10,630 nt of DNA from a virus: UHGV virus genome UHGV-0281862; one strand, 5' to 3'. The notes beneath the pieces are model-generated. The model did no database searches and was not told the DNA's origin. It saw only the letters and a list, made by a program, of their open reading frames with translations. The translations under genes and the position numbers were made by a program. Of the stretch, positions 3,069 through 10,616 are shown piece after piece (the first letter of the stretch is position 1; each line of letters begins with the position of its first letter).

Positions 3069-4064
3069 GTGACCGTGAGAGCGCTACTGACCCCTGAAAT
3101 TGCCCCGCGTATGGGGATCGTATTGTTCAGGCCCGGTTCAGAGCTGATGCCCCTGTTTATGCAGGGGCGTGTCCTGCTGGAGCCTGAGCCGGAACGTTAT
3201 TCATCTTTCGCCAGTGGTGCCGTTCCGGCGGCATCACAACCGCTGGCGGATGATCCTGCCGTTCGGGCCGTGTTCCGCAATGAGGCAGTGATTCGTCGTG
3301 CTGGTGGAGTGGAATGTCTTGAACGCTGGTTACTTCGTGAAAAAGGTTGCCAGTGGCCTCATTCCGACTGGCACAGCGAGAACATGACCACAATGCGACA
3401 CGCTCCGGGCGCAATCCGTCTGTGCTGGCACTGCGATAACCAGCTGCGCGATCAGTTCACGGAACGGCTGGAATCAATGGCAACGGATAACTGTACCCGC
3501 TGGGTGTTGTCTGTTGTGCGTCGGGATCTCGGTTTTGATGACAGTCACGTTGTGACAATGCCGGAACTGTGCTGGTGGCTGATTCGTAATGACCTGGCGG
3601 ATGCCTTACCGGAAAGTGCAGCCCGTAAGGCACTGAGATTACCGAAGCCTGTTGTGCCGTCTGTCACCCGGGAAAGTGACCTTGTGCCTTCGGTTCCTGC
3701 CACCAGCATCATCCAGGATAAAGCGAAAAAGGTGCTGGCGCTGAAAGTGGATCCGGAGTCGCCGGAGTCTTTTATGTTACGCCCAAAACGTCGCCGCTGG
3801 GTTAATGAAAAGTACACGCGCTGGGTTAAGACACAGCCGTGTGCATGTTGTGGAAAGCCCGCTGATGATCCCCACCACCTGATAGGCCACGGTCAGTGTG
3901 GAATGGGTACAAAAGCGCATGACCTTTTTGTGTTGCCTTTGTGCAGAAAGCATCACGACGAGCTGCATGCGGATACCGTGGCATTTGAAGAGAAGTATGG
4001 CTCTCAGCTGGAGCTGATATTTCGTTTTATCGATCGTGCGCTGGCAATTGGCGTACTGGCGTAA
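3069..4064 (+). CDS. DUF968-like prophage protein (YdfU-like) with C-terminal Cys/His HNH-like zinc-finger motif
   Basis: 331-aa ORF directly upstream of the Q-like gene, the position YdfU holds in the K-12 Qin prophage. C-terminal motif CACCGKPADDPHHL...CRKHHDELH resembles an HNH/zinc-binding fold. The start is uncertain (GTG 3069, GTG 3075 or ATG 3111; none has a good RBS). Confidence 0.6.
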   Translation: MTVRALLTPEIAPRMGIVLFRPGSELMPLFMQGRVLLEPEPERYSSFASGAVPAASQPLADDPAVRAVFRNEAVIRRAGGVECLERWLLREKGCQWPHSDWHSENMTTMRHAPGAIRLCWHCDNQLRDQFTERLESMATDNCTRWVLSVVRRDLGFDDSHVVTMPELCWWLIRNDLADALPESAARKALRLPKPVVPSVTRESDLVPSVPATSIIQDKAKKVLALKVDPESPESFMLRPKRRRWVNEKYTRWVKTQPCACCGKPADDPHHLIGHGQCGMGTKAHDLFVLPLCRKHHDELHADTVAFEEKYGSQLELIFRFIDRALAIGVLA

Positions 4065-5332: not shown

Positions 5333-5408
5333 GGCCCTTTAGCTCAGTGGTGAGAGCGAGCGACTCATAATCGCCAGGTCGCTGGTTCAAATCCAGCAAG
5401 GGCCACCA
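5333..5408 (+). tRNA. ileZ: tRNA-Ile2-like, anticodon CAU (Met cannot be excluded from the anticodon alone)
   Basis: 76 nt with a manually folded cloverleaf: acceptor GGCCCTT/AAGGGCC, D-arm GCTC-AGTGGTGA-GAGC, anticodon loop CTCATAA (CAT), T-arm GCTGG-TTCAAAT-CCAGC, 3' ACCA. Closely resembles E. coli ileX-type tRNA. Confidence 0.8.
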
Positions 5409-5417
5409 TATCACATA

Positions 5418-5494
5418 CCGCCATTAGCTCATCGGGATAGAGCGTCAGCCTTCGAAGCTGGCTGTGCGGGGTTCAAGTCCCCGATGGCGGTCCA
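5418..5494 (+). tRNA. argN: tRNA-Arg, anticodon UCG
   Basis: 77 nt: acceptor CCGCCAT/ATGGCGG, D-arm GCTC-ATCGGGATA-GAGC, anticodon loop CTTCGAA (TCG), T-arm CGGGG-TTCAAGT-CCCCG, discriminator T, CCA. The gene symbol follows the ileZ-argN-argO trio of lambdoid/Stx phages; which Arg gene is argN and which is argO is uncertain. Confidence 0.8.
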
Positions 5495-5507: not shown

Positions 5508-5584
5508 GCGTTGTTAGCTCAGCCGGACAGAGCAATTGCCTTCTAAGCAATCGGTCACTGGTTCGAATCCAGTACAACGCGCCA
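5508..5584 (+). tRNA. argO: tRNA-Arg, anticodon UCU
   Basis: 77 nt: acceptor GCGTTGT/ACAACGC, D-arm GCTC-AGCCGGACA-GAGC, anticodon loop CTTCTAA (TCT), T-arm ACTGG-TTCGAAT-CCAGT, discriminator G, CCA. Confidence 0.8.
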
Positions 5585-5629: not shown

Positions 5630-5844
5630 CTCACAATTCAGGCGGTTGACTGTTGTCTGGTTTGCGGGGAGTTTGTTAAAAGAAACTGGCATGGTGAATC
5701 CCCCTGTGCGGAGGGGCAATCAGCGAGTAGGTATATGGGATAATCGCGGATTCAGGTGCTGGTACTGAATTCACCGGGAGGCACCCGGCACCATGCAATG
5801 GCACATAGCGCCACTCTCCAGCCCCTCTCCGGAGGGGCTTTTCT
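5630..5844 (+). ncRNA. candidate structured noncoding RNA module A (promoter-like box to intrinsic terminator)
   Basis: Begins CTCACAATTCAG-N4-TTGAC. Contains a conserved hairpin GCATGGTGAATCCCCCTGTGCGGAGGGGC, the conserved block CACCGGGAGGCACCCGGCACCATG, and ends in terminator GCCCCTC-TCCG-GAGGGGC-TTTTCT (5821-5844). All blocks recur in module B at 6098-6328 with divergent spacers. No conserved ORF. Confidence 0.35.
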
Positions 5845-6032
5845 GTGCCGGATACATCACAGTTTCTGGAACCTTAGGTACTACAGTATCAGTCAGGGTG
5901 CTATATTTTCAGATGTGATGAAAGCCTGTCAGCAGGCAGGGCGTATCGGAAATGACCCAGTAGAGAAAACGTTGACTCAGATACCGGTGCTGAGTTACCG
6001 GGAAACCGGCATCACATGACCGCTATCCTTCC

Positions 6033-6097: not shown

Positions 6098-6328
6098 CTC
6101 ACAATTCAGTAAGTTGACAGTTGCCTGTCAGACTGGGCATTTGTTAAAAAAATTTCGCATGGTGAATCCCCCTGAGCGGAGGGGCGACTGGTGACGGTAT
6201 AATCTCTGATTATCAAAACGAGAATGACGCGGGTTTAGTGGCACCGGGCTGAACTCACCGGGAGGCACCCGGCACCATGTGCATGATGATACAGATACGC
6301 GGCTTTAGCCCCTCTCCGGAGGGGTTTT
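6098..6328 (+). ncRNA. candidate structured noncoding RNA module B (paralogous to module A)
   Basis: Begins CTCACAATTCAG-N4-TTGACA. Shares TTTGTTAAAA, GCATGGTGAATCCCCCTGAGCGGAGGGGC and CACCGGGAGGCACCCGGCACCATG with module A; contains a perfect TATAAT at 6198-6203; ends in terminator CCCCTC-TCCG-GAGGGG-TTTTCTT (6309-6328). Small ORFs inside differ between copies, so protein coding is unlikely. Confidence 0.35.
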
Positions 6329-6559
6329 CTTGTGGGCAAAAAAAGCCCGCGCTGGGAGACGCGGGCGGCAAGGAATAAACAATAAAACGTGAAGTAATAT
6401 TTCAGCTGGCGAATAATACCCCATAGTAATCACTCTGCGCAACTGCGCGGTCTTTTTCGAATTGCGGGCTGTCGTCTCTCTTCTGCCATTGTCCTGTAAC
6501 TTCCGGACTTCAGCCCGCTCCTTATTTTACTCACAATATTATCCCGGCCGGGAGGATTC

Positions 6560-9567: not shown

Positions 9568-9978
9568 TTAGTGCGGAAATATTTGTGTAGTGTTCTGAAT
9601 GTTCTCAGTAAAGAGTAATGAATTATCAAAGGTATAGTAATACCTTTTGTTTTCGTGGATATTTGTAATCCATCTGAAAACCCCTGCTGTAGCAAGATTT
9701 TTCCTGTATTCGTAAAATGATAACTCTCCTGATTTGAATCCTTTTAAGGTGGCTTCTATAAGGCATTTATTTTTTGAAAATCTTACATTTACAACCTTAC
9801 CCTGTCCTTTTATTAAAACCGTATTATCGTTTTCAAGAACAAGATGAATATTCTCTGTGGCTAAATAGTAAATGTAATGTGAGACATTGTGACGTTTTAG
9901 TTCAGAATAAAACCAGTGATAGTTTAAATTATTTCGCACTTTATCGAATATTTGTTTAAAAATGGCAATCTGAGCCAT
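9568..9978 (-). CDS. DUF1398-like prophage protein (YdfO/YbcV-like), in an AT-rich segment
   Basis: Minus-strand ORF; start preferred at the Met (MAQIAIF...) preceded by GGAAGG, giving 136 aa. The position after Rz on the opposite strand parallels ybcV of DLP12 and ydfO of Qin. Local GC content is clearly lower than the flanks. Family call is from recalled similarity. Confidence 0.55.
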
Positions 9979-10035
9979 TGTAGTACCTTCCATGTGATAT
10001 GAGGGGGCGTAGTCTGCACGATTATCTAAATTGCT

Positions 10036-10269
10036 TCAATCTGGTCTGACCTGTTTTCTGAGCAATTCAGTAATGTCACTCTTTTCTTTGTTTGCTTCAG
10101 GCGAAACTCTTTTTTCTGAGCACAGTCTCCGGCGGCAGGCTTCAATGACCCAGGCTGAGAAATTCCCGGACCCTTTTTGAACAAGAGCGATGTTAATTTG
10201 TTCAATCATTTGGTTAGGAAAGCGGATGTTGCGGGTTGTTGTTCTGCGGGTTCTGTTCTTCGTTGACAT
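10036..10269 (-). CDS. YlcI/YnfO-family small protein (DUF3950-like)
   Basis: 77-aa minus-strand ORF, MSTKNRTRRTTTRNIRFPNQMIEQINIALVQKGSGNFSAWVIEACRRRL..., with a basic N-terminus. Lies next to the DUF1398-like gene, as ynfO-ydfO do in Qin. Confidence 0.6.
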   Translation of the reverse strand: MSTKNRTRRTTTRNIRFPNQMIEQINIALVQKGSGNFSAWVIEACRRRLCSEKRVSPEANKEKSDITELLRKQVRPD

Positions 10270-10417
10270 GAGGTTGCCCTGTATTCAGTGTCGCTGATTT
10301 GTATTGTCTGAAGTTGTTTTTACGTTAGGTTGATGCAGATCAATTAATACGATACCTGCGTCATAATTGATTATTTGACGTGGTTTGATGGCGTAGATGC
10401 ACGTTGTGACATGCAGA

Positions 10418-10432
10418 TGATAATTATTATCA
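10418..10432. promoter_or_regulatory. perfect 15-bp palindrome TGATAAT-T-ATTATCA matching the 7-1-7 Fur-box core
   Basis: Exact inverted heptamers GATAAT/ATTATC around a single central base. Located about 150 bp upstream of the minus-strand ylcI-like gene and about 36 bp before cosN. Read directly from the sequence; function is not shown. Confidence 0.3.
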
Positions 10433-10468
10433 TTTTGCGGGTCCTTTCCGGCGATCCGACAGGTTACG

Positions 10469-10480
10469 GGGCGGCGACCT
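10469..10480 (+). other. cosN cohesive-end sequence (lambda-type 12-nt GGGCGGCGACCT)
   Basis: AGGTTACG-GGGCGGCGACCT-CGCGGGTTTTCGCTATTTATGAAAATTTTCCGG matches the lambda cohesive-end junction as I recall it (right end ...GATCCGACAGGTTACG, left end GGGCGGCGACCTCGCGGGTTTTCGC...). Confidence 0.8.
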
Positions 10481-10517: not shown

Positions 10518-10616
10518 CATGTCCGGTTTCTCTTCAAGTTAACTATATGAAAAATATAAAAACAGGTCTTCTGTGAACCGGACATGAACAAAAAACAGAC
10601 ATGTAAACCGGACATG
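10518..10616. other. putative cosB: three copies of a 12-bp terminase small-subunit binding motif with an AT-rich possible IHF site between them
   Basis: CATGTCCGGTTT at 10518-10529 and its reverse complement AAACCGGACATG at 10576-10586 (11 of 12) and 10605-10616. The AT-rich TTAACTATATGAAAAATATAAAAACAG lies between the first and second copies. The layout resembles lambda R3-I1-R2-R1, but the sequence diverges from lambda right after cosN. Confidence 0.5.

Follow-up and report, generated by a model that had tools for sequence, protein, structure and literature searches.

A nohB/nohA-type Fur box beside cosQ in a lambdoid virus genome, and what it may control

Close to the right end of a 10,630-nucleotide stretch of viral DNA (UHGV virus genome UHGV-0281862; the whole of this stretch is referred to below as the window) lies a short palindrome, TGATAATTATTATCA (TGATAAT-T-ATTATCA, positions 10418-10432), which is placed between a pair of minus-strand genes and the cos site. 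A preliminary description of this DNA, made from its letters, had read the palindrome as a Fur box that might bring the minus-strand genes under iron control, and had named the site of another dimeric regulator or a packaging-related element as alternatives. Two questions are raised by this locus: whether the palindrome is a genuine Fur-binding site and, if it is, which process in the prophage it serves.

The palindrome is an exact 7-1-7 inverted repeat, as had been claimed, and inspection of the sequence confirmed both its position and its singularity, no second match to it being found in the 10.6-kb window with up to two mismatches allowed. On base composition, 3.8e-5 exact matches would be expected in the window by chance; at least one match with up to two mismatches was obtained in 13 of 200 dinucleotide shuffles of the window, and, if the sequence is left free, the window holds just two perfect 7-1-7 inverted repeats. 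When the classical 19-bp Fur box, GATAATGATAATCATTATC, was laid over the locus, 16, 15 and 15 of its 19 positions were matched in overlapping registers, the runner-up place in the window reaching 12/19. The distance of 36 bp separating the box from the cosN nick was likewise correct: the box ends at 10432, and the top-strand nick falls between 10468 and 10469, since the cohesive end starts at the latter position. The features of the locus are collected in Table 1.

Table 1. Features at and around the palindrome, in window coordinates
Feature	Position	Strand	Basis or remark
YbcV/YdfO-family gene (DUF1398)	9568..9993	-	E 3e-43
YlcI/YnfO-family gene (DUF3950)	10036..10269	-	E 2e-20; start codon 149 bp from box
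PdhR-type motif AACAGGTCAGACCAGAT	10039..10055	-	identical to PdhR genomic-SELEX motif, Qin ynfO-ydfO
Predicted strong sigma-70-like promoter, GTGACA-16 bp-TATCAT	10406..10433	+	predicted; 10/12 consensus match
Predicted single-dimer Fur site of 19 bp (9-1-9), GATGATAATTATTATCATT	10416..10434	.	same as DLP12 nohB/nohD site over M9 span
Predicted weak mirrored promoter-like element	10417..10445	-	predicted; score 6.5
Perfect 7-1-7 inverted repeat, core of the probable Fur operator	10418..10432	.	sequence
cosQ, GGGTCCT, packaging-termination subsite	10439..10445	+	6 bp right of box; invariant in all surveyed sites
cosN, 12-nt cohesive end GGGCGGCGACCT	10469..10480	+	sequence
Non-lambda cosB, three copies of CCGGACATG	10518..10616	.	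copies at 10518-10526 (inverted), 10578-10586 and 10608-10616

The first question can largely be answered from E. coli K-12, in which the box region has two homologues, one lying between ylcI and nohD in DLP12 and the other between ynfO and nohA in Qin. The DLP12 palindrome is that of the window, the two loci being fully identical from -9 to +9 and differing only at -10 and +13. The Qin box, TGATAATCATTATCA, is also that of phage lambda (48452-48466), where 6 bp separate it from cosQ on its right (48473-48479), and this nohA variant differs from the window box at the centre base and at +8. Both K-12 boxes are already known as Fur sites, under the names nohB and nohA, the site having been recognised as a Fur target in K-12 prophages since the 1990s, so that the label of Fur box given in the preliminary description is correct. 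In the study of Chen et al. 2007 (PMC2189734), which used an M9 model comprising 24 sites, spanning -9 to +9 and having a proven-site cut-off of 10 bits, the nohB site scored 25.3 bits and was the third strongest K-12 Fur cluster, and the nohA site scored 22.3 bits. Because the M9 model extends from -9 to +9 and the differences between DLP12 and the window lie outside this span, the score of 25.3 bits carries over unchanged to the window; weight-matrix scoring against E. coli Fur sites, which had been proposed as a check of the box, has thus in effect been published.

Experimental evidence for the homologues comes from the same source. Chen et al. 2007 (PMC2189734) credit the nohB site to a Fur titration assay of 1994, and the nohA site to Vassinova and Kozyrev, who selected it in vivo on Sau3A fragments; in the paper of Chen et al. 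a nohA oligonucleotide was moreover shifted by 150 nM Fur. That these reports concern the very palindromes discussed here follows from the coordinates of Chen et al., which map onto the palindrome centres of both K-12 boxes. The start of nohA changed from 1634391 to 1636367 between genome versions, an offset of +1976, by which the published 1634624 is carried to 1636600, where the Qin palindrome has its centre; adding 777 to the published DLP12 value of 579824 likewise gives the box centre, 580601. In reviews, nohB is placed among the non-iron Fur targets.

Occupancy in living cells is supported for a homologue in strain CFT073, in which a Fur ChIP-exo peak, P53, was reported at 1424699-1424711 in the iron-replete condition alone (Gao et al. 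2023, PMC10164565). On the extracted CFT073 locus (L003) this peak corresponds to positions 2000-2012, and the homologous box, TGATAATTATTCTCG, which is of the phage-21 type and stands just left of cosQ and cosN, occupies positions 1995-2009. For MG1655 and W3110 no Fur ChIP-exo peak is listed at the DLP12 or the Qin box, nor do five other strains have one listed in their DLP12-equivalent regions (PMC10164565). Inspection of published ChIP data, which the preliminary description had recommended, therefore gives a divided answer, with a peak on the CFT073 homologue and none listed at the K-12 copies. Strain O157 Sakai was considered as a source of further in-vivo support and set aside, its three candidate Fur peaks close to unnamed prophage genes lying in tape-measure genes or in a P2-like prophage and not at cos. 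Fur is bound in vitro and in vivo by homologues of the box, and the window shares the sequence of such Fur-bound sites. With the identity to nohB at 25.3 bits, the gel shift and selection of nohA and the ChIP-exo peak on the CFT073 homologue, it is very probable that the palindrome of the window is a real Fur-binding site, and its own copy may be occupied by Fur.

A palindrome of this kind could instead serve another dimeric regulator, e.g., FNR, or act through nucleic-acid structure as an RNA hairpin or terminator or as a DNA cruciform. In favour of the former, a ChIP-seq summit at 1634625, which Myers et al. 2013 placed among Fur-bound operons, lies on the Qin copy and was obtained with an anti-FNR serum. 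In the old coordinates used there, this summit is 1 bp from the centre of the Qin box (1636600 in NC_000913.3; box at 3594-3608 of the extracted locus L002), and it is one of ten "FNR" peaks that fall on strong Fur sites without FNR-dependent expression; one possibility is that the antibody cross-reacted at such sites. The FNR consensus is TTGAT-N4-ATCAA. As TGAT and ATCA are 7 bp apart in the box, its spacing does not fit the N4 of this consensus, and FNR was rejected as the binder.

As for structure, the region folds better than shuffled sequences (z of -2.4 and -2.7), and variants such as GCAAA/TTTGC, GCTAA/TTAGC and GCCAA/TTGGC, together with CGATAA/TTATCG in N15, appear to be compensatory. 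This impression did not survive a pair-count test, in which pairing was maintained in 80.9% of cells as against 81.2% in shuffled data and the covariation score was 0.140 as against 0.141; the two arms of the box behave as independently conserved half-sites without base-pair covariation. The stem would consist of A/U only, a proper U tract is absent after it, and a search of Rfam returned zero family matches to the palindrome region; on these grounds the RNA hairpin, the terminator and the cruciform were all rejected. Explanations by structure or by a regulator other than Fur are accordingly disfavoured, and we regard them as extremely improbable.

If the palindrome is taken as a Fur operator, the nearest candidates for control are promoters that would fire from the box itself. 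On the plus strand, a predicted promoter has its -35 element at 10406 and its spacer and -10 element (10428-10433) within the box; it ranks among the approximately 12 best of some 106,000 positions scored in the window, and it is the sole strong promoter-like element of the intergenic region according to both a consensus scan and our own scoring. Its predicted start lies near cosQ, and the transcript would run across cos towards the terminase genes. Because the box is a palindrome, a TATCAT -10 element is available on the minus strand too (10422 down to 10417), where the -35 combined with it is poor, its sequence AGGACC being cosQ read in reverse complement. The AT-rich region around the box, in which the promoter of the minus-strand genes had been expected, has 61% A+T over 10270-10440, and the element found on that strand is a weak one.

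From these elements a mechanism may be proposed. In an iron-replete cell, one Fe2+-Fur dimer would occupy the 9-1-9 site, possibly accompanied by a second dimer in a register shifted by 6 bp. The box would supply the TATCAT -10 element of both the strong rightward and the weak leftward promoter and, as it supplies both, Fur bound to it would block RNA polymerase at either. The likeliest direct target would be transcription from the box through cosQ and cosN into the terminase operon, and the ylcI/DUF1398 genes, which read leftwards, might conceivably be affected as well. We consider it probable, with reservations, that the box is an operator occluding promoters that fire from within it, in this lineage mainly the rightward one into cos and terminase.

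Expression data from fur mutants bear on both directions. In CFT073, the genes flanking P53 on both sides belong to the Fur regulon, the log2 changes in the fur mutant being +2.9 for C_RS26755, +2.3 for C_RS07340, +1.3 for terL (C_RS07355) and +2.1 for C_RS07370 (PMC10164565). For comparison, classical Fur targets are raised by log2 5-10 in the same tables (PMC10164565). In MG1655, ybcV, ybcW, ydfO, nohD and nohA are near-silent and keep the same level in the fur mutant. The W3110 fur mutant shows lower levels of the corresponding genes, with log2 values of -5.1 for ynfO, -2.0 for ydfO, -3.7 for ybcV, -3.9 for ylcI and -2.8 for nohD (PMC10164565). The decrease in W3110 extends over ynfO, ydfO, ybcV, ybcW, ylcI and nohD (log2 2-5) and is shared by appY (log2 4); in the MG1655 fur mutant, appY and the DLP12 and Qin genes are unchanged, which constitutes a strain difference that the Fur box does not explain. 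As to gene content, the left side of the CFT073 box (L003 955-1900, NC_004431.1 approximately 1423650-1424600) carries a plus-strand gene for a lipoprotein with a TonB C-terminal-like domain, annotated as "TonB family protein", and a minus-strand gene for a small cysteine-rich secreted protein (MKIRNILAISLATSSFSCLAF...), a context that recurs in another locus of our set (L057); the minus-strand side of the box is derepressed in the CFT073 fur mutant.

It is against these data that iron control of the minus-strand cargo has to be judged, that is, the proposal that the box is the operator of the ylcI-like/DUF1398 promoter. The box does stand within the ylcI-terminase intergenic region, upstream of the ylcI-like start codon, a TATCAT -10 element is present on the minus strand of the palindrome, and minus-strand genes beside the homologous box of CFT073 are derepressed in the fur mutant. 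The CFT073 cargo is, however, a different and unrelated gene, and the K-12 genes ynfO, ydfO, ylcI and ybcV show no derepression by RNA-seq in fur mutants, being unchanged in MG1655 and down in W3110. The minus-strand element is weak, with a poor -35, and the only strong one points the other way. Of 28 unrelated box contexts, furthermore, 19 have a co-directional ORF as their nearest upstream neighbour and 9 a divergent one. The DUF1398 gene has in addition a regulator candidate of its own: ATCTGGTCTGACCTGTT, found at 10039-10055 of the window and the reverse complement of AACAGGTCAGACCAGAT, falls within the final codons of the DUF3950 gene and immediately upstream of the DUF1398 gene. The same motif was recovered by PdhR genomic SELEX between ynfO and ydfO in Qin, and ybcV and ybcW are reported to be activated about 10-fold by PdhR. 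Since the strong promoter-like element is on the plus strand and the DUF1398 gene has a PdhR candidate, control of the cargo by the box is conceivable but unsupported, and we consider it unlikely. The annotation of the window can be settled accordingly, as another Fur site of the nohB/nohA type and not as evidence for an iron-responsive ylcI/DUF1398 cargo.

Whether the box belongs to a promoter, to a cargo or to cos was further approached by comparing 205 lambda-type cos sites, pooled from a viral contig collection and anchored on cosN and cosQ, the box being called present at up to three mismatches. A box was found in 180 of these sites and none in the other 25. The spacer between box and cosQ is 5-6 bp in 151 of the 180, within a range of 3-8 bp from which two outliers depart. 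The box is kept in lambda, phi80, 21, N15, mEp213 and HK225, whose left flanks are mutually unrelated, and in mEp213 the cosQ-cosN interval and the cohesive end differ as well; there the box is a perfect 12-1-12 palindrome, GCAAATGATAAT-C-ATTATCATTTGC, matching the Fur box at 17/19 positions. The consensus of the 59 distinct cos-adjacent boxes, given as ATGnAAATGATAATCATTATCATTT and as AAATGATAATCATTATCATTT, has a core that matches the E. coli Fur 9-1-9 consensus. Among the 39 distinct lambda-type sequences the left arm is invariant, 7 depart at the centre base, which is not contacted, and variation is greatest in the spacer adjoining the box. The N15-type clade has diverged in the spacer, in the cosQ-cosN interval and in all left flanks, and about three quarters of its loci keep the Fur consensus. 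The left border of the box is often the exact point at which homology to the lambda type sets in. The survey results therefore describe the box as a conserved Fur-consensus site which has cosQ as its one constant partner and which is dispensable.

The comparison also sets a limit to the promoter model. Across the 28 unrelated contexts, the -35 preceding the box does not exceed random expectation in quality, so that the rightward promoter is specific to a lineage and its repression cannot account for the conservation of the box; a conserved promoter as the cause of that conservation is rejected on this comparison. Lambda-like phages thus retain a site for a host regulator next to cosQ in spite of extensive mosaic shuffling.

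One way of accounting for this is that the box is an accessory part of cos, and that either the palindrome or Fur bound to it takes part in the termination of packaging at cosQ or functions at the right DNA end, e.g., by slowing the translocating terminase shortly before it arrives at cosQ, any transcriptional effects being secondary. The frequency of the box and its near-constant distance from cosQ are consistent with such a role, as are its retention across unrelated left flanks (in mEp213 even with another interval and cohesive end), the beginning of homology at its left edge, and the finding that neither a promoter nor a gene orientation is conserved alongside it. Its position is conserved across differing cosB specificities, as that of a cos subsite would be, whereas a subsite would also be present in all functional cos sites and the box is missing from 25 of the 205, among them bona fide phages with the Rz-Bor-cos-Nu1 order and the isolate 4A7. 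The possibility that the box-less cos sites belong to PICI satellites was considered and rejected, the lambda-type loci checked being ordinary phages with that same gene order. Further arguments against a packaging role are that the spacer is not constant (3-8 bp), that the packaging papers examined define cosQ as 7 bp and name only cosQ, cosN, I2 and cosB as subsites, and that fur is absent among the hits of a genome-wide screen for lambda host factors. No Fur element beside cosQ is described in the packaging literature examined, and no open-access paper linking Fur with lambda Nu1 or cos was found. The packaging-related alternative of the preliminary description has consequently gained some comparative support, in that the box follows cosQ, and is weakened by the sites that do without it; we consider it distinctly unlikely that the box serves as an accessory part of cos.

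A broader formulation is that the cos region of the lambda family has inherited a Fur operator from its ancestor, mostly 5-6 bp left of cosQ, that this operator is under selection independently of promoter and cargo in lambda, 21, phi80, N15, mEp213, HK225 and many uncultured relatives, and that Fur, and with it iron status, acts on cos. This reading is considered unlikely. Were it true, Fur might slow the terminase, or mark the DNA for it, as the enzyme comes to cosQ during packaging termination, or might shield the cos site and the terminase genes of the prophage. If the conservation reflects a function of cos and not of a promoter, a well-studied DNA-packaging system would receive an input from the iron sensing of its host.

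The opposite explanation is that the box binds Fur and has no function in the prophage, being a decoy that is carried along 6 bp from the essential cosQ. Its abundance would suit such a part: of 5426 complete E. coli genomes, 4615 have lambdoid prophages that match the 431 bp surrounding the box, at a median of 2 and a maximum of 13 places per genome, and matches occur in phage lambda and its relatives as well. Most E. coli genomes hold several copies of this Fur site, which ranks among the strongest known, all on lambdoid prophages. The lack of regulatory output from the K-12 copies and the dispensability of the box in some phages are also in keeping with a decoy. Passive carriage is difficult to reconcile, however, with the N15-type clade, which has kept the Fur consensus in most loci despite the changes in spacer, interval and flanks, or with lambda-type boxes, in which the left arm is invariant while the centre base varies and the spacer most of all; nor does it agree with the Fur-dependent expression on both sides of the CFT073 box. 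A functionless box is, in our judgement, very unlikely, and the operator for promoters within the box remains the preferred reading for the window.

Compared with known systems, the window is closest to the K-12 nohB/nohD and nohA sites, with which it shares homologous DNA, the same palindrome, the same distance to cosQ and cosN, and a location beside a gene of the YlcI/YnfO family, with the small terminase gene following after approximately 233-240 bp. It differs from them in that theirs are defective prophages with a cosB of the lambda type, whereas the cosB of the window is made up of CCGGACATG repeats and the terminase genes are intact in genomes matching the window. With chromosomal Fur operators such as those of fepA-fes, entC, fhuA and ryhB, the box has in common the 9-1-9/19-bp consensus, the overlap with -10 and -35 elements, which in the window are predicted ones, and, as judged from the peak on the CFT073 homologue, the binding of Fur under iron-replete conditions. 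Unlike those operators, which are derepressed by log2 5-10, the K-12 copies give no derepression and the CFT073 copy gives log2 1.3-2.9, and no part in iron metabolism is known for the genes beside the box. A host Fur operator on a lambdoid prophage has a precedent in Stx1-converting phages, in which a Fur box within the stx1 promoter governs this one defined toxin promoter, situated in the late region; the box described here differs from it in adjoining cosQ and in having no consistent promoter or cargo across phages. It also resembles the accessory sites of lambda cos (the IHF site I1, I2 and cosQ/R4) in being a short conserved element at a nearly fixed distance from a cos subsite and a site for a host DNA-binding protein. 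Packaging phenotypes have been demonstrated for I1, I2 and cosQ, whereas the box, which has no known packaging role, lies outside the cos subsites named in the packaging papers examined and is missing from some viable phages.

Some further observations concern the surroundings of the box. In the cosB of the window, three copies of CCGGACATG, one of them inverted, stand where lambda has its R sites, and they are probably binding sites of the small terminase. The same arrangement is found in E. coli O26:H11 11368, in which it is followed by the small and large terminase genes, the start of the small one lying about 34 bp beyond the point that corresponds to the end of the window. In the cos-site survey, at least six types of cosB were joined to the same box-cosQ-cosN block.

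A scan of species-representative genomes for exact lambda cosN returned Escherichia/Shigella and apparent contaminants and was uninformative on host range. The matches in unrelated assemblies (Oceanobacillus, Shewanella, Streptomyces, Mycolicibacterium and several MAGs; L124-L146) were in many cases at contig ends or on contigs with a coverage of 1, and look like contamination with lambda DNA.

Phage lambda itself carries, at 48109-48303 of NC_001416.1 (1810-2004 of the extracted locus L147, minus strand), an intact ORF for a YlcI/DUF3950-like protein of 64 aa (MSTKNRTRRTTTRNIRFPNQMIEQINIALEQKGSG...), the N-terminus of which is nearly identical to that of the 77-aa DUF3950 protein of the window, in a part of the reference record, from 47944 to the right end, with zero annotated CDS. 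In the window, the DUF3950 and DUF1398 ORFs lie downstream of a holin-lysozyme-Rz cassette; upstream of this lysis cassette are three tRNA genes (5333-5405, 5418-5491 and 5508-5581), followed by two copies of the STnc100 sRNA family at 5660-5850 and 6128-6337.
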